From Catajapyx aquilonaris (taxonomy: Eukaryota), in the NCBI GenBank assembly GCA_000934665.2, contig JYFJ02003527.1:1-40489 (forward strand): a stretch of 40,489 bases of DNA, read 5' to 3'. Below the pieces are notes generated by a model. The model ran no database searches, was not told the DNA's origin, and saw only the letters and a program-made list of their open reading frames with translations. Below, piece by piece: positions 93 to 40,489 of the stretch. The stretch's first letter is position 1, and every line of letters begins with the position of its first letter. A program made the position numbers and the translations under genes.

Positions 93-920
93 ACTGTAGG
101 TGGTCGAAATTAGGAACTTGATAACTTTCTACTGTGGCTGCTGGTTCACATCGACAAGTTGCAGCATGATGTCGCTACTTTAAAACATGCAAATAAACAG
201 TGTAAGCAACATCATAGGCTAAAAGAAATTATTGAATAGCATAGCTTAATTGCTGGGAAATGATGGCCAATAATAGCATACGCTGCAGTCTACCATGCGC
301 TTAGAAACAAACTGGGGCATCAGTGCTGCCAGCTCACCAATTCCATCTCTGCACATTTTACCACTGTCACCGGCAATTTGCAGCACGTTACCACAGAGAT
401 ATCTTGGTAGTTGGAATATGAAGCGCTTAGAACAAGTGGCCCAAGTCCAAAAATGCCCTTTTAGAGATAGGAATGGCTTGTGTATTCAGCTATAACAGAC
501 CTCGGTTATAACAAGACTGATCCCTTGAAGTCTATTATATCCGGATTCAATTTTATTACACCCAGTCAACAATGGTGTAAGTCCATGATTCTGTAGGATC
601 ATTATGGTGTAAGTCACATATGATTTTTTATCAATAAATCAGTTTTTTTGTTACAGTAGCAATACATCTAAAAAAGACTGCCATGTAATGATTGCCAATC
701 TGACATAATATGGATCGAGACATATGATTTCTCTTTCGAACTTGCAGGCGAATTATCCCAACTTGAGCTTTTTGGACTAGGGCCACTTTTGCCTCATATG
801 GACCCCTTCCCCTATTCATTTTCGTGTACAGGAATCTGAGGAATGTATCAGTATACTGGTATAGTAGGCATTCACTAAGGTATGAGCCTCTAACTCACAT
901 CAATTTCGGCATCCCTGCAG

Positions 921-1387
921 TTTTCTGACATGGTCCGCCTGAACTCGATTCGGTGTGGAACCGACACTTTGACTGATGAGGTCCGACCATACTGCATGGA
1001 CAGCGATCATTTGGACCAGGTGGTGCGCCATCGCTTGGTGGTGACTACTTGCAATGCATCAGGGACCTTCTACACTTTGGGCCTTCCCAATGGACACTTT
1101 ACACATGTGTTCATAGACGACGCAGGGTATGCCAATGAGCCTGAGGCACTGGTGCCCATTGGCCTTCTATCCACCAGTGATGGAGAAGCACAGGTGGTCT
1201 TGGCAGGAGATCCGAAGCAGCTGGGACCTGTCCTCACCAGCCATCTTGCCAAGAGGAATGGACTGGAATGCTCACTCCTTGAGAGACTTACTGCTGAAAA
1301 CCAACTGTACCAGAGGGATGATGTCAAATTTTCCCATGATGGAAACTATCACCCATTACTTGTCACAAACCTGGTCATCAATTACAG
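921..1387 (+). CDS. armi: helicase exon (motifs Ib-III)
   Basis: Acceptor ccctgcag|TTT at 920/921; donor TACAG|gtatgg at 1387/1388; phase 2. Confidence 0.85.
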
Positions 1388-9532: not shown

Positions 9533-9538
9533 GGGACG

Positions 9539-9546
9539 TGACGTCA
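9539..9546. promoter_or_regulatory. Perfect CRE palindrome TGACGTCA just upstream of the first PPase ATG
   Basis: Motif match in a GC-rich 5' region; function untested. Confidence 0.35.
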
Positions 9547-9762
9547 AAGCCGGCGCCGGGGTTGCCACATCGACCCCGCACTCTTTGAATACGGCTATAG
9601 TGAGCAGTATTATCAGTAAATTCGGTTCTGTCTCAATATTTGGCAACAGTGTGGCCTTGATTCATGATCAATCAGATGGGATGTCTGTAAAGTGATTGAT
9701 TGAGTTCCGGGTGCGGTGTTGCAGGGACACGCAAACAGTGGGGCACAATAATTCAGGCCGTT

Positions 9763-10711: not shown

Positions 10712-10927
10712 CTACATGTGGCTGGCAGAGCTTCGCTGGAGCATCTGCATCATGGCATCTAGACTGGATGAGAGGCAGTCTGCGAAATTGAGTGACATGG
10801 TGTTCTCGCAGGCCCTGAAGCAAGTGAGACAGAACACGATGCAGTCCGGATGAGGATTGTACGCTGCTCCGTAGCCGTCGGGTACCACAGCTCCGTAGCC
10901 CATCACTGTGTCCTCTCGTGTTGGAAT
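10712..10927 (-). CDS. ChAT: ChAT terminal coding exon
   Basis: gacag|IPTREDTVMGYGAVVPDGYG...SHM TAG. Confidence 0.93.
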   Translation of the reverse strand: MPTREDTVMGYGAVVPDGYGAAYNPHPDCIVFCLTCFRACENTMSLNFADCLSSSLDAMMQMLQRSSASHM

Positions 10928-13900
10928 CTGTCGGTGAGCAGACACACTGCGGTTATTCATCAAACTGGTCCCCAATGGCCAATATGATGGATCTGACCTG
11001 GCTTGTGGACAGACTGAAGTGGTTGGCTATCCGGTACGATTCGTCCTCAAATATCTCTGGTAAGGGCTGACCACTTTCTTTGGCCATCTCTCGTAGGCCG
11101 AGCAGGTGTATGTCGATGCCCTCTCCTAGTATGTTCTGTGTCATGATGTTGGTTTGAGCCTCCACCGCTTTCCAGAACAGTGCAGCCTTGTCCTCATCCT
11201 GCGATCAGTCAACGTTTTCGTCAAAACCATTAACGCGACCGAGAACGTGAAACATGGGTCCAACGCAAGTCCTGCGCATGCGCGTTCCAAGAACTCGTGC
11301 GCTGTCCTTCTGCGCATGAACTTACATGCGCATGCGCAGGACCCACTTTTCACGTTTTCGGCGTAACTCACCGGGGCTTCTCCGACCATGGCCTGGACCC
11401 ACTGCAAAGCCTCCATGTGTGCTGATCTGATGCAGTCCACGCGTCCTAGTCTGAACCTACGTGTTGATGCGCTTTCGTACGTGGCCACCATCTTGCGATT
11501 CAACCTGTGCACAACAATTTATTTTGTGGAGTGTAAAAGTTACAATGAGGGGGTGTGTACAGTGCGGTGTCAGGCATACCCGTAGTATGTTAACTGAAGG
11601 GCGAGTTGCAGATAGGCATCAGGGCTGACTTTGCAGGACTTGATGAAGTCCTTGCCATACGCGTTGTACCGGAACACTTCCAGGTCTAGCTCGTCGATGA
11701 GTCTGAAATTGGCAGTAGTATGAAAGAACAATGGCGACAAAAATATCAACAGGACATAATAGGATAATATGATATTTGCAAGGACATCTGAGAAATTGCG
11801 TTGCACACATACGTTATTACAGTCATATGAAATTTATTGCAATTTCAGCATTGAAATGTCTTACATTAGGATTAGAGTTAGTAATATGAACTAAATGCTA
11901 ATTTAGCATTTAATACTTTAAAATATGTAGTCAATATATTGTTGCGCAGTACATTGCCGCCCGAATAGTTTATAGGCCTAATAAAATACAGAAATGATAG
12001 GCCTGTTCTTGATTATCGAGTCCTCTCATGGCTTCATTTAGTTTTTCACTTAGGATAGATAAGCTGCTTCATAATCATACCGTGCTTATGGCACGATAAA
12101 TCATACACGTAATAAAGATAGCGCAGTCTAAAAGGGTAAGGTCAGGACGTCTTTAGATCGCGATTAGATTGCGGCCAATAAGTTTAGTTGTAAATAGCAA
12201 CACTGCACTGCGTACTTTAAAATATTCGTCCCCTGTGCATATACTTGGCACTGGGTTAATGACTAATCAGCATCTGCTGATCAATTTCCGTTGGTATTCA
12301 TGCTGACCCAGAACTATGTCCTGTTTGTATTGCATAAGCTGCCCCAGCCAATGACCTGGTGACGGTACTGTTTTACTTAGTGCTGGTACGACAATATTGA
12401 AATGCACCTGTCGATATTGTGGGAGCATTCCTGTATGACTCGCAGCATCTCCTGTCCGATGTTCCACTGCAGCTTCTTGGGGTGGTCCAGCTGCTGGGAG
12501 GCCTTGTCTCCTGCAGATTTGATCCCATGCTGTCTCATCTTCTGAATAAAGTCGTCGATCAGCTGTACCACCGCGATACCTTCGGACGGGGAGTGCTCGT
12601 AGCACAGCCCGACCACGCCGTCTGACCCGACCACGACCTGCACCGTCTTGTCGAACCATCTGTTGGCCGTGTTGCATTTGGATCCCCCGCCATGCAGCAT
12701 CTGGTGGAGGTGGCTGGTCTCGTCGCGGGATGGCATTGACGTTGCCATCGACGATGAGTAGGTTGGGTTACCAGGGACCAGATGACGCTTGCTGTTGAAT
12801 TTTCGGGGGTCCAGAGGCTCGTCCAGGCACACCAGGAACGCGCATGTCTCCAGCATCTCCAGGGATGTGCGGTTCGTCGGATCTGGAATATTGCACATGC
12901 AAAATATTCAATGTAATGATCAACATCTAATTATTAATTAGATAAGTAATGAGATATGACCACTGAGGACATACCGCTTCTGAGGGCATCTCTTGCATGT
13001 GCCCACACATCTCTTCGTTCCGCGGTCAGGATTCCAACTGGAACAGCTGCGGTTCGTCCAATAGTTTGAACAATCCGATGAAGCTGAGTCACTAGCTCAG
13101 CTTCAGTCAGGCGCCATCCAGCTACTTTTACTTTTAAAACATAAAACTGTAAGATAAAACCACCAGCCTTAATTTGATTTATTGGCGCCAGTGAGATATT
13201 AAGGTTGTGTCCATAAAATACGTCATGCTGCCAGTGGTACATAAACTAACATTATATTAATAATAAATTTGCTAATATAGGCCAAAATATATTTAAAAAA
13301 ATTGCTATCCTTTTTAAAATATTCAAACGGTGAGGACGGTTGGGGACAGCGTTACGTACTTTTTGCAAGGGGTCTGGCCCAGCGTGACTGTGCGTGACAT
13401 GATTTATTAATGTGGAATGAAAACACAAAGATCAGAGTGACGTACTTTATGTCGACCCCTAAGAAATGTAGGATATGGTTTTTTAAACAATACCTGTATT
13501 CGGCTTCAGTTGTCGTACTCCTGCTATGCTAAGCAAATAGCTCTAAGATATAAAATACTATACGGAGCCCATCATTTCGGGGGATTACCTACCTGTGTTA
13601 ATAAGTTAAATAAATGCAATTGAAATAAATATACCGGTATGCAATTAATTATAAATATTTCATTCTACCTGTAGATCTGAAGGTATTCTCTCCAACGAAT
13701 TGATGCCATTTTAGAACTACTGTACGCCATACGACATTAACTTCACTCCTGTAACCTGAACCAGCTAATGTCTTTCCCCATTTGATGACATTATTTTCCC
13801 TCCACTCCTGGTATTACTTACTGAGCTTCGGTCCTGCGCTCTCAGGTAACCCAACGAGTAAAACAGCCATCATGCTCTGGAAGTGTGTGCGAAAGAAACC

Positions 13901-16900
13901 TGAAACGACGAACTGCCATGGAGAACTTAAAGACTGCGTGCATGCCGTGCATTTACGAGTAGCCAATTATAGGATAACGTATATAAAAGTGACAAGCGCC
14001 ACATTGAAACGTCAGGCGAAGTTCTGTCTTATATGTTACCTCCTTCTTGTAGGCCACGACGATATGCTCGTTGTCTGGAGGACCTTCTGTTCTAGTTGAC
14101 CTCAGGTAGTCCCTGGGTAGGGCTGGTACGCGGTAGGTGGTAAACAGACGGTAGTATTGTTCCATGCAGAGTGGTTGGCCCTTCTCGCGGGATGTGGCTA
14201 CGTCTTGAGGAAGGGCTCGTCTGTTCAATGGGAATTAATTGTGACTTCTTAATTAATACGTTAGGCACTTTCTTGCACCAGAATATATTTTTTTGTTAAT
14301 TTACTTGTGTCTTCTACGTCGATGACATTTGCAGGAATATGCAATGATTATGTTTTTAAATTACATTAATATTTAATATTTGCTTACTCGTTCTGAAAAG
14401 CGCCAAAATTAATCTCAGAAACTATATAATCCGAGCAAACCATTACGTTCTTCATATCAGTTTGGCCTGTTTGAGGCAAAAACACCATTTTTACGCGATG
14501 ATGTAATACCCTCATTCACAACATAACGGCAGTGACGTCAACCAAGTGGAAAAGTTCAGATTGGTGGGTGGTAACTTCAGTTAAGGAAGAACGTCACAAC
14601 CGGGCCATGTGCCAAAAAACATTTTGACCAATTCAGCTTGGTATTTAGCCAACTTTGTATGCATTTAGATTGCAAATTCTACAGATAAATCGTTGGTAAT
14701 ACGTGAAGTTGTGAGACGAAACGATCAAAGTGTGGCAGGCTTACAATATTTTCTTTCCATTTTTCTTTCTGTAGAACAGTAGGCTACATTGTTGTTCCCA
14801 TTTTCCAATTTTCTCACCAGTTGCCTACAGGTATCGGGATGCACCTGTTTTGAATCCCATAAACAGAACCGGGGAGCAGCAATCGTTACGTAACCCTAGT
14901 TCCCTCATCTGCCACCATGCGTCGGGCCATGTCCCTTTAAAGTCATCCTACACCCAGACCCCAGCAAGGTGAATCGATCTCTGGTTCCGACACCATGCAT
15001 ATATAGAGGCAGCCAGCACGCAATGCACCTCACGAAACCCTCTACTCTATAGGGGAAAATAAGAAGAAACCTAGCTACACATTTTCGTCTGGAAAATTAC
15101 ATGCGCGTGTAGGAAACTACGATTGAAAAAAATATATATATTGCTAGGCCACCCCCTTCTCTGAAGGTGTTAAGCTGATTAGGAATCCGGTCCACCATTT
15201 TGAGGAAGTGGTCCCTGGAGGATTATCATCTCCAATGAAGCGGTTCCATCCCCTCCATGTTCCAGACAAAATTGCTCATTAATTAATGATTTTAAAATCC
15301 GCTCTAATCCGGTATGTGTCATCGGGAGGATTTTTCGCGCTGGTTTCAATCCTAAAATCCGGGACTTAATTGGTTGGAACCAGTTTGGGATGGGAAATGC
15401 CGTTCATATCGTACTATAGGAGGTTAATTTTTTAAATACACACCATAGAATAGTTGAGCGAATTTCCGTGTTCTAGTCGGATTTATTTGGGTGAGCCATA
15501 ACAGCTGAAGTAGTAGGATATAATGTATTTGCACTTTCTAGGAAGAATGTGTTAAAATTTTCGGACATTTATCGACACAATATATGTGGTGGTGCTTGTA
15601 GATACTTTCTGTGGAAAGATAACTCAACTGTTAAATATTTCACTTCTCATATTACGCTTCCATAGACAGAGATCATAGGTCGAATCTTCTTCATTTCAGA
15701 CAAGATCCTATATCCTATTACGTACAGTGTTGAAACTTCTTAAAATAGCTTTGCACATTTTGTTCATGTCCTGCACGCCCTGGCAATTTCCCATCTCTTA
15801 ATTAAGAAAGGATAAAAACAGCCACAAACTTCCAAATCCCCTTCTGACTATCAATATCCACACATATCTTTTCCCCCTAATTTCCTATTCCGGTCAGAGG
15901 TCGGATTACATTTCCCATCCCTCCAACCCCCACTTTTCTCTCTCAAAAAAAGAGAAAAAAAAATCCCACCCACTGGTTATGTGAGACCATCCGAAGGTCA
16001 AAGGGCACAGGTGCAGCCGGATTGATTTTCCAGCTCAGGCTCAGCGACTGGGACTTTTTTTTAAAATATTATCCCTCCCACCTGCACACCACCCACCATC
16101 AATTGCACCGTACCTATCCAGCACGTCCTTGTAGTCCATCAGGAAGTTGATGATTTTGGCCGCATAGACCAGCTGGTCTTGAATGGAGTGGAACGTTTGT
16201 TGTGGAAAAGCCATTCCTGGATTGGAGTTGATGGGTAGTGGTAGCATGTTGTTCATATACATGTCCTCCAGCCACCATTGGTATGCCTGGAATATGCAGA
16301 TTAGTGCAATATTTCTGATAGCTGTTCAGACAAAAAAATGTTGAAACACCTTGTATTTGGTCTGGCTGTTGTGAAATCTCGGTTTTATCTCTTCCGATAG
16401 TGCCTTTGTGAGGCTTGCTTAGCGCTCCAAGCACAAAAGCTACTCAAGAGCTCGGATCCTCCAGGGGTGCATTAACGTACTGAGAATCGGTATAGAACCG
16501 ACCTTTGACCTTTTGAACCCCAATATTGTTCCAAAAAAGTGAGGCTACCACTTGACATGTCGCGTGTTGTTTTATTCGGTGTGTCCGTGTGGGAAAGACG
16601 CACGTCATAATTTTTCCAATATTGTCCTTTAGTGACCCCATATTATGCCGTGACGTCCGATGCAAATGTGAGGCCAGAAAGCACACTGCGGGATTCATTT
16701 ATACAGGACCACACGTCATGCCAATAGGATTTCGTGGCATTCATATCGGATGGTATTGATTACTGTCCACAGAAGCGTGAGAATCTATAGATCCGATTGT
16801 ATCTGGACTATAAAAAATGAGCGCTGTTATTATAGCGAACTAAAATCTGCATGACGTGCATGACAAAGATTCAATCAAAATGTCGCAAACGTGGACAGGT

Positions 16901-18302
16901 GACTGTGAGAACACCAAAAATAGCCAGTGAAAAGCAGCTAATTAAATAGTATGTTCGTGCACATTTTTACTGATATATCTAGTGGCGAAATTCTTTATTA
17001 TGATTTGTCCTTGCCTGAAAAACATGGGTCGCAAGTATCCTGAAAAAGGGGCCTAAACCAATTGGCACGCGTGGCCCAGTAATTGACAGCACAAGCAGAA
17101 AACACATGTAGCCATCACTTCTGCAAACATCCACATCCATCTCTTGCCGGTTAATCCAAATCCTGATTCAAATGAGCGTAACGTGGTTAACACGGGTTCG
17201 CCTCTTTGATTAATCCCCGTAATCGAATCAATCCTTCCGACCTATCGCATTAGGGACCTGTCCGGGATTCGAACCCTGCACCTCTAGAGATATGTGTTTG
17301 TTCATTACTAAGGATTAGATTTTTAAAAAATGGATATCCTTAACTTCAATATTGACAAGCAAAATTTACCGACCCCCCTCCGACGTGTGATTTAATTGCA
17401 GACGTGACGTCACGATGCTTGGCTCCACATCGTTAGCGCATAATCAAACGGGCTTCCGGCTGAGTTGTTTCGACTTCCGCTTTTCCTCCCACGTGACTGA
17501 TTAGCGCGGGCAAAGGAGTGGAAAATGCGATTGAAAATCAATTTCTATTTGGTTGCCGCCCCCAAGAAATTGCTTGTTTGATCTCTCCGCCAGTGAGGGA
17601 AATTCTTGTTTTGGTAATGGAGGTTGCACATACAGATGCGGTGGTTTACTGAATGAAACGGATTTATGCTTGAAATATTTTTGTTTAATATTTAAATATA
17701 TTATTTTAAAATATTAAACTAGGCCCCTATGGCTGATAGTGAGACAATTAATAGTTCCTCCTTCCGCCCACCAAAGGCGCTGCCTTCTCCCATTGCGCCG
17801 GCGCAGAACGGGGGCCAATAGGAAGCTTCGCACAAACAATGTACGGCAGGCCAATCAGGAGCCCCACCCAAGCAACGATTTTAAAAGTAGCCTATAAATG
17901 AATCACTACATCACAATAACTAGGCTAAGGAGAAAAAATACGTATATACACACAAAAGGAGCCTTGCTAGAGTGCTGGCGCTCCAACTGGTATTATTTCA
18001 AGACATGCTGTTCTTCCCTGCGCATTTTATTTTTTTATTCCATAATATTTGACGCCCCTTTCAAAAGAAATTCTTAATATTACAATTTTATTATTAGTAA
18101 GATATTAGTAAGATATTAGTAAGATATTAGTAAGATATTATTAGTAGATATTGAGTAATCAGTAGTAAGATATTAGTGGATATTCAGTAATCAGTAGTAA
18201 GATATTAGTAGAGATTATTAGTAGATATTAGTAAGATATTTGTAGATATTAGTAAGATATTTGTAGATATTATTAGTAGATATTAGTAAGATAGTAAGTT
18301 AG

Positions 18303-18385
<83 letters not shown>

Positions 18386-21300
18386 GTAATTTTATTATGA
18401 CACTTTAACTTTAACCTACCCCACCTGCTGTAATTATAGACTTTTCCGAGCCAGAAGCCTAATATTTTCAGCAGTTAGTAAAATTAATTGGGCCGTAAAT
18501 AACCGGTCCATTATCATCTGAAAGTAACCACATCAGGTCTCCCCAGAAAATAGTACATAAATAAGAGGAAGAGTGGACTGCTTTTGTTCGGGTCGATTAT
18601 ATCCCCATCCTTGCTCTTCCCCCCTTTTCCAAACGTAGAGGGGCCGAAGGGCATCCCTCGAAAAAGAAGGGAAAAAAACATTAATTAGATTAGTTACAGT
18701 GGGCCGTGTAGGGTAATGAACAGCCCACAGCACAAGCTGGGAAGGGCAACATGTTTGAGCCCTCCCTAAATACGTGACTCATACTTGGTTCGATACCAAC
18801 TGGCTTCATTTGGGTACGATTGTCTCGTTAGTACCACCAAATTGGATATGAAAAATATTTTTGACTCACCCAGTTCTCATAAATGTCCCTCTTCTCCACC
18901 AGCCTTCTCTGCAGAGGTGGTCCTGGTCCATCTGGTTTCAAGAAGGCATCAACCAACTCACTAGTCCTCTGGTACTGTTCGTCGTTCAACAGTGGTTGGA
19001 CTGCAGCTAAGTACCTCTGCATTGTCGTCTCCAAAGGTGGTACCGGCAACTTGGGCAGTTTTCCATCGTCCTGAAGAATAAAAGCAATGGATCAAATTCG
19101 GCATCAAATTGGCTAGGTGCCCTCGAGGAAGAAAAAGAAGTCTAAGCAATCAATAGGTTGGTCCAGCTTGTTTACATTTAGGGAGGGCTTTTCGGTTTTC
19201 TTTTTCTTCCCTTATTTTCTCCTGGACCGATATTATCCCTGAGGCCTTACAAAGGTTGACATCGGGATTTCGGATCTCATAGACAGAGAAGGATATCGTC
19301 GTGAAATGGTGGGGAGAGGAAGCCAAGTTGTTTGGAAACATCCTCTTCAATTTGGAGAGTGGCACAAGTGGTCATTTAATAGTTGTATAACAACTTGCAT
19401 TACTAATATAAGAGCCAGCGACTTTTTGGTCATAGTTCACTGACTATAAGCCAAGTCAGGCAGATATAAGCCACTATCATGAATGCCTGTTTGTGTACTC
19501 TTTGCCCTCCCCCATTCCAGTCACCACGCCTTGAACCGCAAGTGTTGTGGTCCTCACGCCTCCGGAATGAATCCGGAGCCACTTCATAATAATAAAAAAG
19601 CTTCCAACCTCCCTCCCTAACTATTCTTACATGAGACCAGCCAACCGCACAAAGTTGGGCGAATTACTTCCTAGCCCTGCGTCTAAATCACCCCTGAAGC
19701 CTATTGTACCCCCCCCCCCTCCCTTTCCTATGCAAACTCTCCCCTCTACCGGATAACTTCATCCCCATCCAGCAGAGTTGGTAGGAGGGGTAAGGCCCTT
19801 AATGAGATTCTCCATTATTCATGGTTGCCCGGACTTTTCTCTCCATGGGATGCTTAGGATCTGCCCGAGTTAGCACTTTGCAAGGTAAAGTTCGAGATTT
19901 TTTTGAGAATTGTTGTTTGGAATATTTGCATCCCATGGTAAAGGGTCAGTGTTTATAGGGACTTTAGTTGTATATTATTTTACGCATCTTTTTACAGCAT
20001 AAGTTCCACGAATGTGTCGACTGCGCTAACCGAGGCGTGATTGGCCACCTCAGATGAGGTATTGAACCTCATCTGAGGTGACCAATCACGCCTCGGTTAG
20101 CACAGTCGACATATGCGGGGAACTTACTTGAAAATAATAATCCAGTGTTTTTTAATACCTCATCTGAGGTGGCCAATCACGCCTCGGTATGCAATGGCTC
20201 ATATAATATTGTACAATTTTTCAATCTTTAGTCATTATGCTAGTTTTTTGCTCATTAAAATATCTAAAAATTGAACATCAGCATATCATTTACAGATTAA
20301 GTACACCTTAGCCTGCCTTGTACTGAATCTTCCATACCCAATAAGGTGTGTTATACTCCTGTCGTATTCAATCAGTTGTTCAGCCCTCTTCTGCTAACAT
20401 CATTAGTTTCTGGGAGGGGATATCAAAAAAGAAACCCGAGACTGGGAAAACGTAACCTCGAGAGCAGGGTCGCGCCCCTTGGTAGATAAAGTACCTCATT
20501 TTAATCCAGTTTCGACTTTCCTCATTAGCCCTTTCCCCTCTGAACAATGCTAATCATGCAATTTTCTGATTATAAGGTGCGCAAACTGTGGCCGGATCTT
20601 CATTACTTTGGGTTTCACATTAAAGGGTAAGGTGTTATATTGCCGCATAGTAAAGACAACGGAGGTCTTGGAATTTGGTGAAACATGCAACGGTTGTACT
20701 TATGCAAATTCTTGCATGTTATTTGCATATTTCGTTTATTACATTTACAGTCATATCAAGTTCCTGTAGTATGTACTTATCTTTCATTGTTATGCTCGGT
20801 ACAATTTCTTGTCACCTACACTATACTTTACGTGCATCTTAGCAGCACTATGATTATTATCTTCATTGTTATATTACGTGACATTTCCTTGCTGGCCACA
20901 ACAGACCGTGCTAATGAATTAAACATGCAATATCTTAATCCAAGTTTGTCCCCATTTCGAGCTCGCCATTTCAAAAAAGGATTCGATTGAACCACCAAAA
21001 TGGGTTGGCAAATCCGGTAATTATTCCTACGCAAATGCTCGCGTGTGCTGGTGCCCAATAGGCAATTAAATAGGAAGGTCTGTAACCTAGCTGCATGTGT
21101 GATGGGGTATAGGGACCTAACATATATCGAGGCTTTATATCCATTAGGGGGACAGGTAACACAAAACTCTGGGTAATCTCCCCCACAAGATCACTTAAAC
21201 TGGAGGACAAATTAGGGAATGGGAGTGGAAAATCGATGCTATTGCGTGAGGGTAATGTTCGTTAGGAGAAACCTATAGTTTAATGGGTTGGAAGGTACAA

Positions 21301-31100: not shown

Positions 31101-33605
31101 TTTTAGTACACTTCACTGTACATGTTCAGCTTTTGCATACAATATTCTCTTTAACAGCATTCGGTAACAAACCAACTTTGCAAGTATTTTTTTTGGCGTG
31201 AAAATGCACACAAGTACACACATAGGAGCTGCGTCCAACCAATCACATCCGTCCTGGTTAACAATGTTTTCTTATTTTCTTTTGGTAAATCTTGCCTCAC
31301 AACACGAAGAAGGGAACACGAGTCACACATCTTTTTTTAAAACTTAGTGTTCTTTTTTTTGTAAGAAAAGTTTCTATTGCACACACTTGTAGCAATTGTT
31401 CAGGTGACGCTAAGCACACTTGTTTTCAAGTTAAAGCTGTTAACACCTTCCAAATTATACACCTTATTAGATGGCAACAAAATAACAAACATTTTACTTC
31501 AACAAGAAGTAAGATAACTCAAACGCTACTTTTTTTTTGTTCACTCGAAGAAGACAATAATTGACTTTCGAAGTGACTGTTAAAATAATACTCTTATTGC
31601 TTGATGGGAAACTTGAACTCTGTACAAAGTTTTAACACGACACTAACTATAGTTCCATCTCTGTATAGTTTGGTGTCCTACGTCTATTTTTTTTTAATTT
31701 GCTCCGTTAACACCGATATTTCAATTTTTAAATATTTGGTAGACATTGTAGACAGTTATGTCACATCAGGTTATTACTATATATTTTTTGACTGGGGGGG
31801 TTGAGTAAACAGGAAACGATTTTGAAAATAGCCTCTACCTTTTACACAGGGCTTCGATGTTGCAATCATATCTGGATATTTGAACAGTGTGCTTCAGTAT
31901 GTGTTTTACATGTGTCTTTTTTATGTAATAGTGTACAGGTATGTGTGTGTATTAGCAGTTTTATTGCTGTAGTGACAATCTCCAAGCCCACAATTTTGTT
32001 GTTTTTTTTCGGCTGCGAAAAAATGCGAAGAGTTGTTTCAAAAGGACGTTCGGTGGATAATAGACACATATAACATTTACTGTCGGGTTTTTTTTTTGAA
32101 GTATTTAGGATTCAAGGTAGGGTCCCGCACGTCACAACAGGTCTGCACGATTGGTACCAATTTTTAAAAATTCACTCCTCAATATATATTTTGCATACAG
32201 AAGAAAGCTCTGACATACATGACCTACCATTTTTCCACATGTTCTGCGTGCGTTATTTTATATTTATAACATTACATCATTCCTGCAGGCACCAAGAAAA
32301 CGCTCAACAGCAACTCGTGTGATTTAGTCGTAAATCTGCAGATCCACAGTTGACTTGGAGTTAACACAACATTGTTACCGGGTCATCATCAAGTCGTAAA
32401 TTACACGACATGTTGGGAAGTTTTAACTGGTGATATCTTATGTTGGGGGAGTATTTTTTTATATAAACAAAAGCGCAACAATTCTTTCATAACATCCCAA
32501 TAAGAATTGGTGGAATATCACAAACATTCTATGTACATTAATATTACATCTACCAAGTGCACCTGATTGATCACACCGGACACTGAGGTCAGGGGTCATG
32601 AGGAGGAATGGGTCTAATTTTTTTTTGTTCATGACACTATTTTTAACATTTGGGGGGGGGGGGNGTGGGGGGTAACTACTTCACAAACTAAACACCGTTT
32701 GGCTCTGTGTAGTAGTCTATGTTCCTCCTCAATAAATCAAAAATAATTATACACAACTATTATTATTTAATTATTAAAGACAGGATTATTCTCACCCGAG
32801 AAATTGTCCCGACCACTTACATTTGTAATGATATGTGTTAGCCTTGGTTGTTGTCATGATTGTGACATCAGCACAAACTATGACACGATATAAGACCACA
32901 ATTAATTACGCATCGCGCAATATTAGCATTTGGGGGGGGAGGGTTATAATAGATATACACATTTGAAGTTTGCAATGGGGAGCTTGAATATATTGGCTTT
33001 AAAAAAATAATTATGCGCTACAATCATGTGGAGCGTGAATAATCTCGCATGACCCGTTCCAGAAATAAGCTTGCGTGAGTCGCGTGATCTATTAAACCTA
33101 CTTTCCTTTTAAAAAGAAAAATTCGGGGGAATATATATTTTTTTTCATGAAAGATTTAAATCAATTCGACGGAAGACTAATTCGTACGGAAAAAATGGAA
33201 CACTCCTTGCCCACACAATAGGCAATTTTTTTTAACACAATATAATACTGATATAACTAAGCACCTCTAATTTGCAATGTTAAAAGGCGTACCCTCACTT
33301 TTTTTTGTCCTATCAACAATGAGAATCTTAATGCAAATACTTGGTAAGAACAATTAATTTTTTTACCATGCGTGTAGCCATTTTCCTGATACTTAAAAAG
33401 GGAACTTACCTCGTTACATTCAGGTCTCGACATGTCAATTTTTCGACCCATTTTCTAAGCTGTTTAGGGGCAGTTGAAGCGAGAAAATGAAATTTTGGCA
33501 CGCCTTGTATGTAAGCCATATTGGTGATCCATTGAAGTGCTTGCTTTTTTATATATATTTTTTATCAGATATATTTGGATACTGGAGTGTCCAAGTACAG
33601 ACAAG

Positions 33606-35498
33606 TTAATACCCAAACCCTTGTTTGAACGGGTTGGATCCGGTGGTACCTTGCTGTACATTGCTGGCTGGCGTACTTTGCCTAAACGGATTGTTGTCCA
33701 CCGGTGCCTGCTGCTGGTATTGCTGCTGGGGTTGCTGTTGTTGGTACTGTTGAGGTTGTTGTTGCTGGTATTGTTGTTGCTGTGGTTGTGAGGAAGGCGG
33801 AACAGGAGGTCGGGATGATGCAGGTGGTCTGGAAGGCTGGTTCTGCTGGGAATAACCAGCCGACCCGTACGACTGGTCCTGCGACTGGTTGTGGTATCCG
33901 TTAGGACCGACAGCGTCTATGTTAGTCTCGGTGATCTGGGTCGCCTGTCCGTCGGCGCACGGTTCTTCCTGCAGCTTGGAGTAGAGGAGGTGGTTCTTGA
34001 GTTCGTTGAGTATCGGCCTTGGACCCGAGCTGTCGTGCATGGCGTATGTCTGGTACTGCTTGTCAGGTGGGTCGCCCATGATGATGTTGGCCTCGTCTTC
34101 GAACGGCTTGTAGTCGTAGATGTTACGCAGGAAGGCCAGTACCGGTACGTACATGAGGTTGGAGATCGCGATGCCGATGTTGAGAGCCACGAACCCGATC
34201 GTTTGAACCACACCGCCAGCGATGATGGGCCCGATTGCGTATGCCATGGAGTAGGATATGTCGGCTATGGCGTAGATGCTGCCGTACACCGACACATGCC
34301 GTACGTCCACCAGGTATCCGAGTGTCGGCAGCAACGCGGTGTCGATCAGCGCGATTCCGAAGCATATCCCGCATATGGGTATCATCAGCACCCAGTACGA
34401 CGTGGCCATCGGGACTATGAAGCAGCAGAGACCCTCCATGGCCAGACCAATTGCAGCCATGAGCCACTGGTACTGTGGGTACTTTTTAGCCATTTTGACA
34501 GTCAGCACCACGCCGAAGACATGTGGGAAGAAGGCCGGCAGCCAGATCATGCCCATCTGCCACTCCACCACGTCCATGTGGTCCATCATCCAGAGGGATA
34601 TGGTCGGCTCCAAGAAGGCCAGAGACACATTGGACATCATGAGTGCTCCTGCGCACACCGCGATGTACGGGTCCATCAGCAGCTGCCATATTGGGGTGCC
34701 CTTCTGGTGCTCCATACTCTGCTCCTTCAGGATCTGCTTGATCGGCTTCATCACCAGAAGCAGCATGAGACCATCAGCCAGACAGACAAATGCCAGGACC
34801 AGGAAGGGAAACTCCTTCCCGCAGAACTCGTACAGGATGCCTCCGAACGGGGGCGCTACCAGACACCCGAAAGAGATGAAGGCCAGGGCTATACCCAACG
34901 CCTGTTGTCGTTCGTTCTCTTCCGTGAACCTGTCCGCAATCATGGCCAGTCCGGATGTGTCAGCGAACGCGGACCCAACACCCTGAAGACTACGTGCAAA
35001 AAACAGCACGCTGTAGCTGGTACCGCACGCGAACACGGCCGTCGAGAAGAACATGATGGTGAGTCCGACCATCATCGGGATGTCGTACCCTATCCTGTCG
35101 ATCAGCGCTCCTGAGAAAGGGTTCACCATCAGCTGGATCATGGCTTTGGAGGCGAACAGCACCCCGATGGCCGAGTCTTCTCCTTCGTACACGATCATTC
35201 CTTTCATCAGCCTCCCAGGACCTGCCGCTACGCTGTAGTTTCCAGTGGCGTTGACGTGCCACGTGGGCGCATCGGTCACCATCACCTGGCCCTCGGTGTG
35301 AGTGTCCCACACCCCTATCTTCCGGAGGTAGTCCGGTATGATGGGCACGATGACCATATAGAGCATGTTGTCCAACAGGAGGGCTATGGACACGATGACC
35401 AGGACCAGCCTGCGTTGCGCCCTTGGTTCTTGAAGTCGGTCCCATAATGCGGCCCTCAGGTCGTTCAGCTCCAGGTTCAGCCCCGGTACCGTCGGCAT
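33606..35498 (-). CDS. VAChT: Vesicular acetylcholine transporter (SLC18A3), intronless, 630 aa
   Basis: Motifs ALLLDNMLYMVIVPIIPDYL, LFASKA, RSLQGVGSAFADT, LAFLEPTI, ALIDTALLPTL and YGSIYAIADISYS; Q-rich tail; Kozak ACCATG; same strand as and upstream of the ChAT exons. Confidence 0.97.
   Translation of the reverse strand: MPTVPGLNLELNDLRAALWDRLQEPRAQRRLVLVIVSIALLLDNMLYMVIVPIIPDYLRKIGVWDTHTEGQVMVTDAPTWHVNATGNYSVAAGPGRLMKGMIVYEGEDSAIGVLFASKAMIQLMVNPFSGALIDRIGYDIPMMVGLTIMFFSTAVFACGTSYSVLFFARSLQGVGSAFADTSGLAMIADRFTEENERQQALGIALAFISFGCLVAPPFGGILYEFCGKEFPFLVLAFVCLADGLMLLLVMKPIKQILKEQSMEHQKGTPIWQLLMDPYIAVCAGALMMSNVSLAFLEPTISLWMMDHMDVVEWQMGMIWLPAFFPHVFGVVLTVKMAKKYPQYQWLMAAIGLAMEGLCCFIVPMATSYWVLMIPICGICFGIALIDTALLPTLGYLVDVRHVSVYGSIYAIADISYSMAYAIGPIIAGGVVQTIGFVALNIGIAISNLMYVPVLAFLRNIYDYKPFEDEANIIMGDPPDKQYQTYAMHDSSGPRPILNELKNHLLYSKLQEEPCADGQATQITETNIDAVGPNGYHNQSQDQSYGSAGYSQQNQPSRPPASSRPPVPPSSQPQQQQYQQQQPQQYQQQQPQQQYQQQAPVDNNPFRQSTPASNVQQGTTGSNPFKQGFGY
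33706..33790 (-). repeat. Coding Gln-rich repeat in VAChT tail (QQYQQQQP-like x3)
   Basis: Translation SQPQQQQYQQQQPQQYQQQQPQQQYQQQA. Confidence 0.9.
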
Positions 35499-36962
35499 GG
35501 TGACAACCTTATGACCTCACGACACTATTCGACATTGAGGTATTAGAGAGGAGGCGACGGAGCAATCATTCTACACCCCGCTAGACCATAGATTTTTAAA
35601 CTATTGTTCAAAAGTGTCCGGTTTAAGCTGTCCCAATGGTGCGTCGCTCGTCCGTTATCTTGTGTGTGCAGGAACAGATGGGAACGAGTGATGTCCGCTG
35701 GATGCCATGGGTCATCATGGGACGGGTTGACCTTCAAAGAAGGAAAAAAAGGAACATTTTTTAGAAAAAAATTTACTTTTGTCAGCCCGTTTTTTTAAAA
35801 AAGAGAAGTTATTGTTTTTGATAATAATAACTGATGGGGTTTTTATAAGTGAGAGTGAAGCGCACTCGTTCCCATCTCCTCCTGTTAAGGAATATAAAGA
35901 AATGTGACAAGAGCATTTTAGAGTGATCCATCAAAATCATTTCCTGAAATACTTTTTTTTTACGCAAGTTCACTTTTTCAAACCCCATCACTAAAATGGT
36001 GGTGTGTCGGTGTGTGTCATGCACGTACCGTAAAATTGCAATGGTGTGATGATGTTATTATACAGGCGATGAACAGTTTATTTGTGGGGGAAATGCTACC
36101 AATGGACGGCTCAACAAAAATACTGTACTTCGAATTGTTTTATTGCATGCGATGTAAATGCCGTGTACATTATTTTTCAAAGGTAATCACGTAATTGCGC
36201 GTGTTCAGTGTTACTGTACATTCAGCGAGAGTCGATCAATATTATTCAACTACACATGCCATCTATGAACTACTTATAATGTTATACACACCGATCTACA
36301 CAACAATGGGTTTAATTATGAAGATAGAACAAATATTGTTATCTGCTATGAAAGTTTTGAGTATGAAAATGTTAGGACTTTGTCTACTACAATCGGCCAA
36401 ATTATTTACATACAACTTGAGCAACATCTGAGGAACGAACAGTATAGCAACTCTAACGTATTAGTTGCGCGGTAATAAAATACGATAACGATAGTCATCA
36501 ATGAGTACAAGATTACTGTTTCAAAACATATAACTTTAAAATTATAATGAAGTTATTATTTGAAAATCACCTGACTGATTATAATGCAGTATAGAGTGTA
36601 ACATATTGTCTAGAAACTCTGCATTTTTTTTGCCTTCGTCAAATGCTTTAGGCTGCATCACGCAGGCTTTATTATTGCCACATTCACTATTTGCTTAGTG
36701 TGTGTTCCTGAATGGGCCAGCCACAAATTACGGAATGTGCCAAAAGGTGTCAACTGTGTAGTCACTCCCACGCCCCACGCTGGGCGCCACTATCAAATCC
36801 CTGATTATTATTAATAGTAGTAGTAGCATGCTAGTTAATTTTGACACGGACCATTTTTGAGGTCGATACCTCAACTACATATTTATGAGTTCTGAAATTA
36901 CGTGTATGCATTAAATTGCGATTGGCAGCATTCCGTAATTTACAGATGGTCCGAGGAAGTCA

Positions 36963-36968
36963 TTTATT
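36963..36968 (-). terminator. Candidate polyadenylation signal of the VAChT-like paralog (second candidate 36668-36673)
   Basis: AATAAA on the minus strand ~80 nt after the stop. Confidence 0.4.
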
Positions 36969-37046
36969 TATGAGATTAGAGAAAAATAAATGCTATGGAC
37001 AACAGTCTAAGCGAAACATTCATTCTTGTCCTAACCACCCTCCCAA

Positions 37047-38621
37047 CTAATGCACATAATCGTACGGCACCGGTGCCCTCATAATGTTGGGTTGCTGCAC
37101 ACATGCAAAATATCTGGGCATCGGCGGGTCATCCAGCAACACACTATGATCCGCCAGCATCTGCAAGGGTTGATTCTCATTGGCATCGGCCACATTGGAC
37201 TCCTCCACGTACAAAGACCGCAACGAAATGAGGAACGGAGCGAAGAGAATGGCACACAGCCCGATGACGTACATGAGCGGGGAAAACCCTATCAACTGCA
37301 CCAGTCTCTTGGACGTGATTGGGGCCAACGCGAAACCCACGTTGTAACACATGTTGACCAGGGCGAACACCCGTCCGTAAGCAGACAGATACCGAGAGTC
37401 AACCAACGAGGCCATTGTCGGCAGGAGGATCATGTCGATTAGTGTGACCCCGACGCATATACCGCACATGACCACAGCCAATTTCCAGCAACAGTGCGCT
37501 ACTGGTATCAAGAAGGTGCATACCCCTTCCAGAAGCAGACCAAGTACCAACAGGACCCACTGGTGCTGCGGGTACGAGCTTACCATCTTGTAAGCGGCCA
37601 GTATGGACACAGCCACAGTGGACAGAAATATGGCGGACTGCGTGCCTGCGTTGATTCCCACTAGAGACCGCAAGGTAGGTATGGTGTCGATTGTGTGTGC
37701 CAGGTAGGCAGGGGGTATCCTGGAGATGATAAGGGCACCGGCTGGCAGGATGACCTGCGGGTCCATCAGTAGGAACCAGATGGGGACGCTGACCACTTCG
37801 GTATGCCGGTGAACTAGTCTGGACTTGACAGGTCTGACTATAATGATGCTCAGACCCACTGACAGAAGCAAAGAGGCCTGGAGCAAGAACGGCTCGGTTT
37901 TCCCCACGTGCGAGTACATGTACTCCCCAATCCTAGCGCTGTAGATGATCCCAGCCGAGACAAGCAGCTCGGACAGCCCGTAACCCATGACCCTCTCGTT
38001 TCGACCCCTGATGACATATGCCACCAGCGCAAAGGCAGCAGTCTCCGCAAAAGCCGAGCCTATCCCTTGCAACGCGCGTCCCAGCAAACTCAAGAAGTAA
38101 TTCTCCCCATACGCAAAAGTGACCCCTGACACGAACAAGAACCCAACACCCAAAATCATGGTTAGGTCAGTCCCGTGCTTCTCCACCAGCGATCCGGCTT
38201 TGGGGCAGGTGACGATTTGAAACAAGGACTTGGCAGCGTAGAGGAACCCGAAGCTAAAGTCCCCGTAGCTGTCGTAGTTGAACACGGTCCTCTCTATGAT
38301 GGTGGTAGTGTTGAGCAGAACCCCGTTGTGGTTTCTGGCACCATCCAGCTCCCTCTGGAAGTACGAGGCCAGAGGACCGGTGACGGGCACCAGCTGTATT
38401 CTGGCCGGCACAGTCACCACCCCTCGTTCCATCAGAAACTTGGTGACAATGGTCATGGAGGATCCATTCAGGACGCTGACCAGGAATAGTGTTAGAGGAA
38501 CCACCACGAGGACAAACCGTTTTTGGCAAGTGTCGCTCTGAAGGCAGGAGCAGAGGTAGTCTTTGAGTCTGGTGTTGTTGGAACTGGTTGTTGTGGTGGT
38601 TGTTGTGGTGGTGGTTGACAT
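37047..38621 (-). CDS. Divergent VAChT-like SLC18/MFS transporter paralog, intronless, 524 aa
   Basis: Uninterrupted ORF from GCCATG (38621). Collinear by eye with the neighbouring VAChT: QKRFVLVVV, YAAKSLFQI, RALQGIGSAFAET, PIWFLLMDP, YPQHQW, GICVGVTLIDMILLPTM, LVDSRYLSAYG. Multiple hydrophobic segments. Confidence 0.9.
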   Translation of the reverse strand: MSTTTTTTTTTTSSNNTRLKDYLCSCLQSDTCQKRFVLVVVPLTLFLVSVLNGSSMTIVTKFLMERGVVTVPARIQLVPVTGPLASYFQRELDGARNHNGVLLNTTTIIERTVFNYDSYGDFSFGFLYAAKSLFQIVTCPKAGSLVEKHGTDLTMILGVGFLFVSGVTFAYGENYFLSLLGRALQGIGSAFAETAAFALVAYVIRGRNERVMGYGLSELLVSAGIIYSARIGEYMYSHVGKTEPFLLQASLLLSVGLSIIIVRPVKSRLVHRHTEVVSVPIWFLLMDPQVILPAGALIISRIPPAYLAHTIDTIPTLRSLVGINAGTQSAIFLSTVAVSILAAYKMVSSYPQHQWVLLVLGLLLEGVCTFLIPVAHCCWKLAVVMCGICVGVTLIDMILLPTMASLVDSRYLSAYGRVFALVNMCYNVGFALAPITSKRLVQLIGFSPLMYVIGLCAILFAPFLISLRSLYVEESNVADANENQPLQMLADHSVLLDDPPMPRYFACVQQPNIMRAPVPYDYVH

Positions 38622-39353
38622 GGCCAAACTCTCCCCCTACGTACTTGTTGTGTCTTCTCGGTTTGTCTGGCACGTGGCAGTGGCCGTTGGTGTGATGGAG
38701 GCGCATAGCAGACAACCCCGCCCTCTGTATGCGACGTTGTACTCTACGCAGCAGCGTTCATGGTAGTAGTCTTGAACAGAGAGGAAAACGGAAACCATTT
38801 TCAGTGGGGGATCTTCCTTGTGCAGTCCACATTCAAGAAGCGATTAACCACACCCCAGATTAAACCCAAACGGACGTCATTACCATTATATGCGAATCTG
38901 TCCCGTACACTACGCAAGCCTGCGAATTACAAGTTAGGTAGCTCCGGGGCGCGACCTTCTAGTGCATGTACTGCACTGCGGTTGAGCCGCAAAATTAAAC
39001 AGGGGAATGGGAAACTTCACAAATTAGAAATGAAGTCGTTATTAATGCACAGGTGAAACTGCCGAGGCTCGAAGTGCCGTAGCTTGAAAGATGGACCAAT
39101 ATATTCTAAATAAACTTTTTGAATAAGTTACACACAGCGATATTTCATGCACCCTAAGTGAAAGTCAATTAATTCAGAGAAGTTTCTAGCTGACACACAC
39201 CATGCGGTTGCACAGTCATGTTGTGTGACAATAACTGCGACCATTCACGAAACGGGTGAAAGATATAACTACAGCGTCCCATTGATGTGTCCGTTTCACT
39301 CGGCAATTATTTGCAAGCTAAACTACCTTCCGAAGTCCTAAAATTAACACCCA

Positions 39354-39397
39354 ATGAAACTGTTCCAAAGAAACTAGTTTCTTTGGAACAGTTTCAT
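39354..39397. repeat. 44-bp perfect palindrome without spacer
   Basis: atgaaactgttccaaagaaact|agtttctttggaacagtttcat. Confidence 0.95.
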
Positions 39398-40489
39398 CAA
39401 CATGAAGGGCAAATAAAATAATATCGAAAAACGGACACTCGTCTGGAATACGCTGTTAAAAATGCACGCATAGGAACTATATCCGTTATGTTCATCCCAT
39501 CTATGAGCATATTAACACATTTGCATTAACATTAATATAATCCGGTAATGTTCAACCCTCCTTGTAATATAGCGGTACCTTCTTAAACCAGGTGCATAAA
39601 GAATCTTTAAAAACTGCTGCGAATCATGCAGAAATTTGCATATAATTTGGTTGAACTGAATGTCCCTTTAAAATGTCCAATATCATCACGACTGAGCCCG
39701 GCTGCAATGTGAATCCCACAACAAGACTAATCGCCATCCCCTGTCAAGGTCACACCCCTCACCGACAGCATCAGATAACGAGATGCTTATAAGTGTCAAC
39801 GGAATAACGTTAAGTTGCATCAACAATATTCGAGATGACACAACCCCCCCTTCCCCTCCGTATGGAATTCAGCAGCTGGGAACAAAATGTCTTCTCCTGT
39901 CCCCCTCTCCTATATCTCCCCAAAAGATTAGCCTCCTCTCTCTTCGTTATTGCCATCGCCATTACCTTCCCCGAGAACCTCTATTTTTCTTCTTCTCTCC
40001 TACCCTCCTCCTTTCACGTCCCATGCAATTAGGAAGGACGAAGGGCAGTTGGTTCCCAACTTTGCCCACTCTTTTTCCCCCCCGCTGTTTCTTTCAAGAG
40101 GAACACTTGTACTTTTCCTCAACACACTCCACAGAATTGTGAGAGACATTTTGACAGCGACATGGCGACACTTTTCGTGCAATAGAATTGCGTGGTCAGA
40201 ATTGTACCGAGTTGGTTGAATACCAGAACTTTTTTTTTTTGAGTTGTCGGTTCCAGCTGCCATATGCAATGTGAGACATTTTGTTCACTACCGGTACGTA
40301 AATGAGACAACGTAGCCTGCACGATGAGATGAATTATTAATGCACAGCGTGATGCCTTCACCTCCTTTCAGTATTATGCAGTGAGCTCTATCGGTTATTT
40401 TCTACTCCCGGTTGTATAATGCTATAGATATTGATCTGAGGATGAGCATTATAAATTTCGTTTGGGGGTGACCGAACCAGTACTGTCCC

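Follow-up and report, generated by a model that had tools for sequence, protein, structure and literature searches.

VAChT and ChAT make up a textbook example of a conserved two-gene unit, by which cholinergic neurons are defined. Portabella (prt, SLC18A4), a further SLC18A gene, is not known to be linked to VAChT in Drosophila. In the classical cholinergic locus VAChT lies within the first ChAT intron and the two share a 5′ exon (PMC12724666). Three reports describe prt as an orphan insect SLC18A paralogue akin to VMAT and VAChT, with an unknown substrate (PMC8566550, PMC3853582, PMC13205867), and one of them reports it from Drosophila and the honey bee (PMC3853582). An additional SLC18A gene, one that may define a novel transmitter, has a forerunner in prt. 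The locus described here resembles the classical two-gene locus in order and strand (VAChT, then ChAT), in its intronless VAChT and in a candidate 3′ splice site upstream of VAChT, but it differs in having a third, related ORF ahead of VAChT.

In the window, meaning the whole 40,489-nucleotide stretch of DNA that was analysed, the genes lie in the order VAChT-like paralogue, VAChT, ChAT, and each of the features located here and below is on the minus strand. The detectable exons of choline acetyltransferase (ChAT) span 10739..19058, downstream of VAChT, and match positions 62-573 of the Carn_acyltransf profile. The canonical VAChT coding sequence (P0002; 630 aa, with a Gln-rich C-terminal tail) occupies 33606..35498. 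Upstream of it, at 37047..38621, lies the intronless coding sequence of the divergent paralogue (P0001; 524 aa), which runs from an ATG at 38621-38619 to a TAG at 37049-37047 through 524 codons without a stop or frameshift. Its stop codon is 1,548 bp from the VAChT ATG, in agreement with an earlier note on this DNA, which had described a 524-codon intronless ORF on the same strand 1.55 kb upstream of VAChT. A tblastn search of the window found no VAChT-like place besides these two. BLASTP aligned P0001 with P0002 at 156 identical residues of 503 (31%; 47 gap positions; E 3e-78), with residues 17-504 collinear with VAChT 12-482, from before TM1 to past TM12. This end-to-end match bears out the heavy divergence and the TM1-to-TM12 collinearity that the same note had described, and the poly-Thr N-terminus that it had pointed out corresponds to residues 3-12 of the cytosolic N-terminus (38586..38615), encoded by mixed ACC and ACA codons. 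No known RNA families were found in the window, and no repeats common to 35499-40489 and the remainder of the window were found.

Sequence and structure comparisons placed P0001 close to VAChT. The Pfam MFS_1 profile (PF07690) matched it with 86.8 bits against a gathering cut-off of 33.4 (E 1.8e-24), and its best PDB sequence match was human VAChT (E 2.7e-59), followed by VMAT1/2 (E 2.2e-44 to 1.8e-39). An AlphaFold2 model (pLDDT 84.4, pTM 0.85) contained 12 long helices. When this model was used in a Foldseek search, the first five places went to human VAChT (TM-score on the target 0.87-0.90), VMATs appeared from rank 6, and the top 46 ranks were without exception VAChT or VMAT entries. The paralogue is therefore confidently predicted to encode a 12-helix SLC18A-type transporter with a fold closest to that of human VAChT. 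It is like VAChT (SLC18A3; 8ZMR, 8ZMS, 8XTW, 9KKN, 9WJI) in its 12-helix MFS fold, its intronless coding region, its strand and locus with ChAT, its TM10 Asp and TM2 Lys, its gate pair (R210/Y417 in VAChT), a lumenal loop 1 with an N-x-T sequon, and a C-terminal acidic dileucine motif. It differs in being only about 31% identical, in having the poly-Thr N-terminus, in lacking the Gln-rich tail, and in the substitutions D46V, E309A, D425N and W331F together with new pocket residues R301 and E218. The fold and the central Asp are also common to the VMATs (SLC18A1/2), the next-best PDB matches after VAChT. The TM1 aspartate of VMATs has a role in monoamine recognition, and the paralogue, unlike the VMATs, is without it; a clade with VMAT-type proteins was also rejected (see below).

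Human VAChT contacts acetylcholine through 11 residues, namely N47, Y50, M51, I221, S225, N302, L305, I394, D398, Y428 and Y432 (PMC11369146). The neighbouring VAChT keeps 10 of these 11 contacts, whereas the paralogue keeps 2, D396 and Y426. D396 (codon 37434..37436) is the retained TM10 aspartate, which in SLC18A binds the substrate amine (D398 in VAChT, D399 in VMAT2, D407 in VMAT1; PMC11369146). In TM1, the segment V48-S49-x-x-N52-G53 (38463..38480) replaces D46-N47-x-x-Y50-M51 of human VAChT, which comprises an acidic residue and three acetyl-group contacts (PMC11369146), and all three of these contacts are changed (N47S, Y50N, M51G). At the pocket position of human N302 the paralogue has an arginine, R301 (codon 37719..37721), and at that of L218 it has a new TM5 acidic residue, E218 (codon 37968..37970). 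The pocket acidic residues D193, E309, D398 and D425 correspond to E193, A308, D396 and N423, so that one is identical, one (in TM4) is a conservative replacement and two are lost; D46 is the third acidic residue to be lost. The TM2 Lys is retained, as are five of the eight cytoplasmic-gate residues and the gate pair R210/Y415. The C-terminal cytosolic sequence D491-H-S-V-L495-L496-D-D-P-P (37122..37151) is a dileucine motif preceded at -4 by an acidic residue. The C-terminal acidic dileucine motif of SLC18A has been defined and its function described, and VMATs also bear a dileucine-type C-terminal signal (PMC2175167). Because 9 of the 11 acetylcholine contacts are changed, the paralogue probably loads a substrate other than acetylcholine, and the rebuilt pocket suggests that it has a new role.

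The earlier note had also claimed that the paralogue is under selection, and five sequence tests support this claim. When the nucleotides of the ORF were shuffled 2000 times, every shuffle acquired in-frame stops (mean 19.8), and its five alternative frames hold 7 to 34 stops. Neutral drift, simulated 200 times on the VAChT core coding sequence down to 32% identity, never left it stop-free (mean 13.9 stops). GC3 is 0.70 in the paralogue and 0.74-0.78 in VAChT, with a flank GC of 0.36-0.44, and relative synonymous codon usage (RSCU) correlates with that of VAChT at r 0.69 in the paralogue frame and at 0.15, -0.35 and 0.09 in the off-frames and antisense strand. Across the 339 non-identical sites the mean BLOSUM62 score is -0.26, compared with -1.13 +/- 0.08 in 2000 shuffles. 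The paralogue keeps 21 of the 23 family columns with at least 90% conservation and 16 of the 121 columns below 30%; where the VAChT neighbour has the family consensus, it keeps 18/20 highly and 60/176 weakly conserved columns (Fisher p 1.5e-6). For the pair, dN is 0.73 and dS about 1.7, a value that rests on saturated sites. Selection is supported by the frame, intact where simulated drift always broke it, by GC3 together with codon usage, by conservative replacement, by the preferential retention of invariant columns and by the cytosolic sorting motif that has been kept; a pseudogene was ruled against by the same frame, simulation, composition, codon-usage and replacement results. As judged from sequence, the paralogue is a real gene and not a relic, and its replacements are conservative.

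Phylogenetic analysis placed the paralogue inside the VAChT clade, both in a FastTree tree (101 rows, support 100) and in a quick IQ-TREE tree (43 rows, support 100). In AU tests (29 rows by 420 columns), a position in the VMAT clade was rejected (p 0.001), as was one outside VAChT plus VMAT (p 1.4e-5); the constrained trees came from fast searches, and these p-values may be somewhat too small. A position at the base of all VAChTs was not rejected (p-AU 0.34). Free maximum-likelihood (ML) trees set the paralogue beside its neighbour P0002 and P0015, and among 153 other proteins compared the top BLASTP bit score of P0001 was to the neighbour (246, the next being 227). Its terminal branch, at 3.0 substitutions per site, is very long compared with 0.18 for the neighbour, so its placement inside the VAChT clade is tentative, and in larger trees it was drawn towards other long branches. 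Between the paralogue and VAChT, pS is 0.67 and dS about 1.7, and such near saturation of synonymous sites indicates that the duplication is old. Remnants of a segmental duplication were looked for in the flanks, and the two upstream regions proved dissimilar by blastn; the sole match in three flank comparisons was a chance-level 32 bp, on the opposite strand, between the region upstream of the paralogue and that downstream of VAChT. The pS value, the dissimilar flanks and the ML position next to the neighbour support the earlier proposal of an old tandem duplicate.

A HMMER search of 1.84 billion representative proteins found no closer relative of P0001: the best match was 36% identical, and the eight top matches were canonical VAChTs. 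Compared with prt indirectly, through this library, which also covers insect proteomes, P0001 had its best matches in canonical VAChTs and none exceeding 36% identity. A second VAChT-like copy was found in none of 80 metagenomic VAChT loci, 26 of which extended 3.2 kb or more upstream. When metagenomes were scanned for sequences related to the paralogue, 43 stretches matched the pattern and no relative was among them. A word-index search with P0001 residues 110-480 returned just two weak bacterial-type MFS matches. In the literature searched, we found no description of a third SLC18A gene, intact and long maintained, in or beside the VAChT/ChAT locus. The earlier note's suggestion of an undescribed system is overstated, the finding being one divergent paralogue of a known transporter family. 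We rate it as a new, lineage-restricted, divergent SLC18A paralogue and not as a new kind of system.

Overall, evidence from one genome, comprising sequence and predicted structure, makes it reasonably probable that the paralogue is a functional, selectively maintained and lineage-restricted tandem duplicate of VAChT, sorted to vesicles and acting as an antiporter for a substrate other than acetylcholine. In the cholinergic locus of this pancrustacean-type arthropod the gene lies directly 5′ of VAChT and ChAT. It keeps the fold, the TM10 Asp, the TM2 Lys, a Glu at the TM4 acidic site, five of the eight gate residues and the dileucine motif, and its acetylcholine pocket is rebuilt. Its protein would be sorted to secretory or synaptic vesicles and would act as a proton-coupled antiporter whose substrate, though not acetylcholine, is probably still an amine or other cation. 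An ancient SLC18A3-side paralogue that predates the arthropod radiation and was lost or strongly diverged elsewhere, or a gene orthologous to a named insect paralogue (portabella/SLC18A4, for example), would not be specific to one lineage. Either would fit the saturated synonymous sites and the tree in which all canonical VAChTs are monophyletic and the paralogue lies outside them, which is merely 1.34 log-likelihood units worse and not rejected (p-AU 0.336). Other very divergent VAChT-clade proteins also exist, and the paralogue groups weakly with them (support 82-89), but its BLASTP scores to these divergent groups (149-159 bits) are lower than those to canonical VAChTs (200-246 bits), so the grouping looks like long-branch attraction. 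Since the free ML trees set the paralogue by its own neighbour, the exhaustive HMMER search of a library with many arthropod proteomes yielded nothing above the 36% match, and a second copy was seen in 0 of the 26 loci with sufficient upstream DNA, we regard such an ancient origin as unlikely.

Loss of transport is also unlikely, although several features point towards it. A non-transporting relic, either recently silenced or a "dead" transporter with a non-transport role such as VAChT regulator or chaperone, would account for three missing acidic residues out of the five that VAChT has embedded in the membrane, for a branch about 17 times as long as the neighbour's, and for N302R, which may neutralise the one remaining Asp. 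An out-of-frame upstream ATG (ORF 38254-38715) that overlaps the start of the paralogue points the same way and would hamper its translation if the 5′ UTR is long. Against this, the frame is intact where all the neutral simulations failed, GC3 and codon usage are held well above flank composition, replacements are conservative on a retained invariant scaffold, the gate pair and sorting motif are kept, and the fold is predicted confidently. This evidence excludes long neutral decay, though it is compatible with a non-transport role. With E309 and the TM1 Asp gone and an Arg beside the Asp that is retained, coupled transport could just as well have been lost. That the paralogue might instead also carry acetylcholine, as a subfunctionalised second transporter that differs in kinetics or in the cells expressing it, is in keeping with its location in the cholinergic locus on the VAChT/ChAT strand, with the retention of D396 and Y426, and with a report that D425N leaves vesamicol binding intact (PMC11369146). 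We consider this very improbable, however, since 9 of 11 contacts differ, including all three for the acetyl group, where the neighbour keeps 10, and since N302R brings a positive charge into a cation pocket.

On the favoured reading of a maintained tandem duplicate with another substrate, the vesicle-sorting signal and rebuilt pocket make the paralogue a candidate orphan vesicular transporter. Orphan SLC18A transporters are rare and can lead to unknown transmitters, as with portabella. VAChT is reported to be an insecticide target, and the changed pocket makes the paralogue relevant to target-site reasoning in that lineage. It is also conceivable, if improbable, that the locus is a three-gene cholinergic unit in which the paralogue is spliced from the VAChT/ChAT 5′ exon and expressed by cholinergic neurons, filling the same vesicles, or ones close by, with a second small cation; if true, this would be a built-in co-transmitter system, defining an unrecognised transmitter as portabella may. 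By consensus match, two pyrimidine tracts that end in AG are candidate 3′ splice sites: one at 38770..38800 (AG at 38772-38771), 149 nt ahead of the paralogue ATG, and one at 35731..35760 (AG at 35733-35732), 233 nt ahead of the VAChT ATG. A candidate polyadenylation signal, AATAAA (36963..36968), likewise recognised by its consensus, starts 79 nt after the paralogue stop.

The divergent VAChT-like paralogue P0001 (37047-38621, minus strand) is an uninterrupted SLC18-type ORF of 524 codons, running from an ATG at 38621 to a TAG at 37049-37047, and it lies in tandem with the adjoining SLC18-type ORF P0002 (33606-35498, minus strand; 630 uninterrupted codons), its stop codon being 1,548 bp from the P0002 ATG. 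The earlier note had described an intact ORF upstream of VAChT on the same strand, collinear with it and with a poly-Thr N terminus, and this description was confirmed: residues 17 to 504 of the paralogue align with residues 12 to 482 of P0002 (156/503 identical, 31%; E = 3e-78), and the Thr run occupies residues 3 to 12. Both proteins match Pfam MFS_1. The regions of the paralogue before TM1 and after TM12 (the cytosolic tail) also align with VAChT, indicating that the ORF is complete and that no extra exon is needed. Downstream of P0002, on the same strand, six ORF fragments at 10.7 to 16.3 kb match positions 62 to 573 of the Carn_acyltransf profile, and similarity to choline acetyltransferase (ChAT) exons reaches 19,058 in tblastn with P0009, a predicted VAChT-ChAT fusion protein of 1121 aa. 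The fusion is most likely a gene-model artifact of a nested cholinergic locus in another organism. Because the ChAT exons lie downstream of P0002 on the same strand, the order is paralogue, VAChT, ChAT. Apart from the additional gene on its 5' side, this is a cholinergic locus of the usual kind, and tblastn detected no VAChT-like sequence in the window beyond these two.

Judged by its sequence, P0002 is a canonical VAChT. Its residues 1 to 490 are 70 to 75% identical to proteins named vesicular acetylcholine transporter in their sources, from springtails, stick insects, cockroaches, water fleas, lobsters, and horseshoe crabs; it matches human VAChT with an E value of 1.8e-165 and, of the 11 residues that contact acetylcholine in the human structure, retains 10. 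Among the matches listed, none is more than 75% identical to P0002, suggesting that the collection does not sample its lineage closely. FastTree analysis of 32 rows placed it within Pancrustacea (support 95) and outside the winged insects (support 100) and did not settle its branching among decapods, branchiopods, and springtails. The C-terminal tail of P0002 (33606-33900, minus strand) is Gln rich with Pro-Gln repeats, and the paralogue has no such tail. A polyQ region of Drosophila VAChT is reported to set vesicle fill level (PMC6402538).

The paralogue is a divergent variant inside this known family. Its best PDB matches are three human VAChT constructs (E = 2.7e-59 to 7.3e-58), followed by VMAT1/2 (2.2e-44 to 1.8e-39) and then bacterial NorA (about 1e-9). 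Exhaustive HMMER searching of 1.84 billion representative proteins yielded 748 matches at E <=0.001 and 50 at E <=1e-30, with no relative closer than canonical VAChTs; the best match is just 36% identical, and the best 8 matches examined carry canonical VAChT motifs. Among 153 other proteins, the top BLASTP score belongs to its own neighbor P0002 (246 bits), followed by the library protein P0003 (227). Both FastTree (101 rows) and a quick IQ-TREE run (LG+C20 PMSF, 43 rows) placed the paralogue inside the VAChT clade with support of 100, on a very long branch grouped loosely with other long-branch sequences (support 82 to 89) and with long-branch warnings. When the other long rows were removed (24 rows, 396 columns, LG+F+G4), the unconstrained maximum-likelihood tree made it sister to P0002 plus the library protein P0015, with a terminal branch of 3.0 substitutions per site versus 0.18 for P0002. 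Forcing it outside all canonical VAChTs in this set cost 1.34 log-likelihood units, and the resulting tree was not rejected (p-AU 0.336). The paralogue again joined P0002 plus P0015 in a second set (29 rows, 420 columns) that included more remote SLC18-like outgroups, and in which AU tests, using constrained trees from fast searches, rejected its placement with VMAT-type rows (p 0.001) and outside VAChT plus VMAT (p 1.4e-5). The search constrained to keep it with VAChT ended on a poorer tree than the unconstrained search, whose tree already groups it with VAChT. Other very divergent library proteins also fall in the VAChT clade (P0026/P0113/P0149, P0029/P0037/P0075, P0030/P0053, P0044, and P0145), some of them without the TM1, TM10, or TM11 aspartates; Arg occupies the position of the TM10 Asp in P0029, P0037, and P0075. 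VAChT-derived divergent paralogues may thus have arisen repeatedly.

The suggestion that the tandem duplication is old was upheld by these free trees and by comparison of the two genes. Synonymous sites differ at a proportion of 0.67 (Jukes-Cantor dS about 1.7, close to saturation), and dN is 0.73. The same codon is used at only 33 of the 101 identical residues having four or more codons, and blastn of the two coding sequences found two short similar stretches only; together with the near-saturated synonymous sites, these data argue for an old duplication. No blastn similarity was detected between the two upstream regions.

The earlier note had proposed that the paralogue is under selection. 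Constraint was judged from its own single sequence, and the evidence favors selection. When the core coding sequence of VAChT was allowed to drift neutrally in simulation to <=32% amino-acid identity, in-frame stops averaged 13.9 and none of 200 runs remained open. GC3 is 0.70 in the paralogue and 0.74 to 0.78 in P0002, and the GC content of intergenic and flanking DNA is 0.36 to 0.44; the RSCU correlation between the two genes is 0.69, versus 0.15, -0.35, and 0.09 for the two off-frames and antisense strand of the paralogue. Replacements are conservative, with a mean BLOSUM62 score of -0.26 at the 339 nonidentical sites versus -1.13 +/- 0.08 in 2000 shuffles (maximum, -0.82), and hydropathy is correlated (r 0.30 versus -0.06 +/- 0.06 in shuffles). 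In a 72-sequence SLC18 alignment, the paralogue keeps the majority residue at 21/23 columns at least 90% conserved (P0002, 20/21), 35/61 at 70-90% (61/62), 28/88 at 50-70% (64/85), 34/134 at 30-50% (86/144), and 16/121 below 30% (29/118). With the count restricted to columns where P0002 has the consensus, a proxy for the ancestral state, it retains 18/20 highly conserved versus 60/176 weakly conserved columns (Fisher p 1.5e-6). AlphaFold2 with the same alignment predicted 12 long helices (mean pLDDT 84.4, pTM 0.85), with low confidence limited to the lumenal loop and termini, and the top five Foldseek matches of the model are human VAChT entries. Taken together, the drift simulation, composition, replacement quality, column retention, and fold exclude long neutral decay, and the paralogue is very probably alive as a gene.

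We mapped pocket residues from the human VAChT structure paper (PMC11369146) through HMMER alignments to the human chain and the alignment of the two ORFs. Passages of that paper identify human D398 as the amine-binding Asp common to VAChT and both VMATs and report that D398A and D398N almost fully abolish vesamicol binding, which is disrupted by E309A and not by E309Q or D425N. The paralogue retains this Asp as D396 and human Y428 as Y426, and five of eight cytoplasmic gate residues (A201, R210, L400, A404, and Y415; changed, I197F, L214Y, and Y421F). All three acetyl-group contacts are replaced (N47S, Y50N, and M51G), as are further contacts (I221V, S225I, N302R, L305P, I394V, and Y432F), so that 2 of 11 acetylcholine contacts are left. 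Acidic residues are lost through D46V, E309A, and D425N, D193 has become Glu, and L218E and N302R introduce new pocket charges. The reported mutant effects suggest that D425N alone would be mild in the paralogue and E309A would not. C389 and K131 are retained; we take the lysine to pair with the TM11 Asp.

After TM12 the paralogue carries a dileucine-type sorting motif, D491-H-S-V-L-L-D-D-P-P, aligning with D-V-L-L-D-E-P-P of the human chain and I-I-M-G-D-P-P of P0002. The -4 position of the motif is Asp in the paralogue and Glu in all three transporters treated by Krantz et al. 2000, according to passages of that paper (PMC2175167). Unless trafficking is under selection, it is difficult to see why so short a motif has persisted in an otherwise unalignable tail of low predicted confidence. 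The TM1-TM2 lumenal loop contains an N-T-T sequon (N104).

The best reading of the sequence is that the paralogue is an old tandem VAChT duplicate retained as a protein-coding gene. The scaffold, residue changes, and selection signals are established here: it keeps the alternating-access scaffold, central carboxylate, and vesicle-sorting signal and has rebuilt its substrate pocket. From these we infer that it works in vesicles as a proton antiporter whose substrate is not acetylcholine. Its interest is as a candidate orphan vesicular transporter within the cholinergic locus, known from the sequence of one genome. One metagenome scan, for relatives of the paralogue itself, recovered none. Another, with a VAChT alignment, recovered 80 VAChT loci, some of which may share one organism and none closely related to the source of the window; in 26 loci the DNA upstream of the gene extends for at least 3.2 kb, and in 13 of these the best segment was at least 59% identical to P0002. 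None of the 80, including those 26, contained a second VAChT-like sequence (tblastn, E 1e-5). Literature searches turned up no tandem paralogue of VAChT in work on VAChT, SLC18, the cholinergic locus, or portabella/SLC18A4 (CG10251), and text passages of the SLC18 phylogenies in PMC10244343 and bioRxiv 10.64898/2026.10.09.757917 do not mention one.

A candidate AATAAA polyadenylation signal (36968-36963, minus strand; consensus match only) starts 79 nt after the stop of the paralogue and fits with its having its own 3' end. Five AATAAA/ATTAAA motifs occur in the 1.5 kb between the two genes, and none in the first 600 nt after the VAChT stop codon (33000-33605, minus strand). Pyrimidine tracts followed by AG, candidate 3' splice sites by consensus only, lie 149 nt before the paralogue ATG (38772-38771, minus strand) and 233 nt before the P0002 ATG (35733-35732, minus strand), and would be compatible with a common upstream exon spliced to each ORF, the arrangement of known cholinergic loci. 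A different reading frame contains a 153-codon ORF (38254-38715, minus strand) that overlaps the start of the paralogue; its ATG lies about 85 nt before the paralogue ATG and, if included in the 5' untranslated region, would serve as an upstream start, which argues that the real 5' untranslated region is short.

Elsewhere in the window, a stretch immediately 3' of the last ChAT exon (9134-9695, both strands) has a richer GC content of about 0.50 and five frames simultaneously open for 115 to 175 codons; low sequence complexity or an unrecognized exon may account for this. An ORF fragment at 8188-8505 (minus strand) matches no Pfam family at E <=0.01 and contains a motif presumably typical of inorganic pyrophosphatase. 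Three ORF fragments at 894-3504 (plus strand) match SF1 helicase AAA_11 and AAA_12 (E = 1.6e-12 to 2.9e-19) and look like UPF1/MOV10-type helicase exons on the strand opposite to the cholinergic genes.
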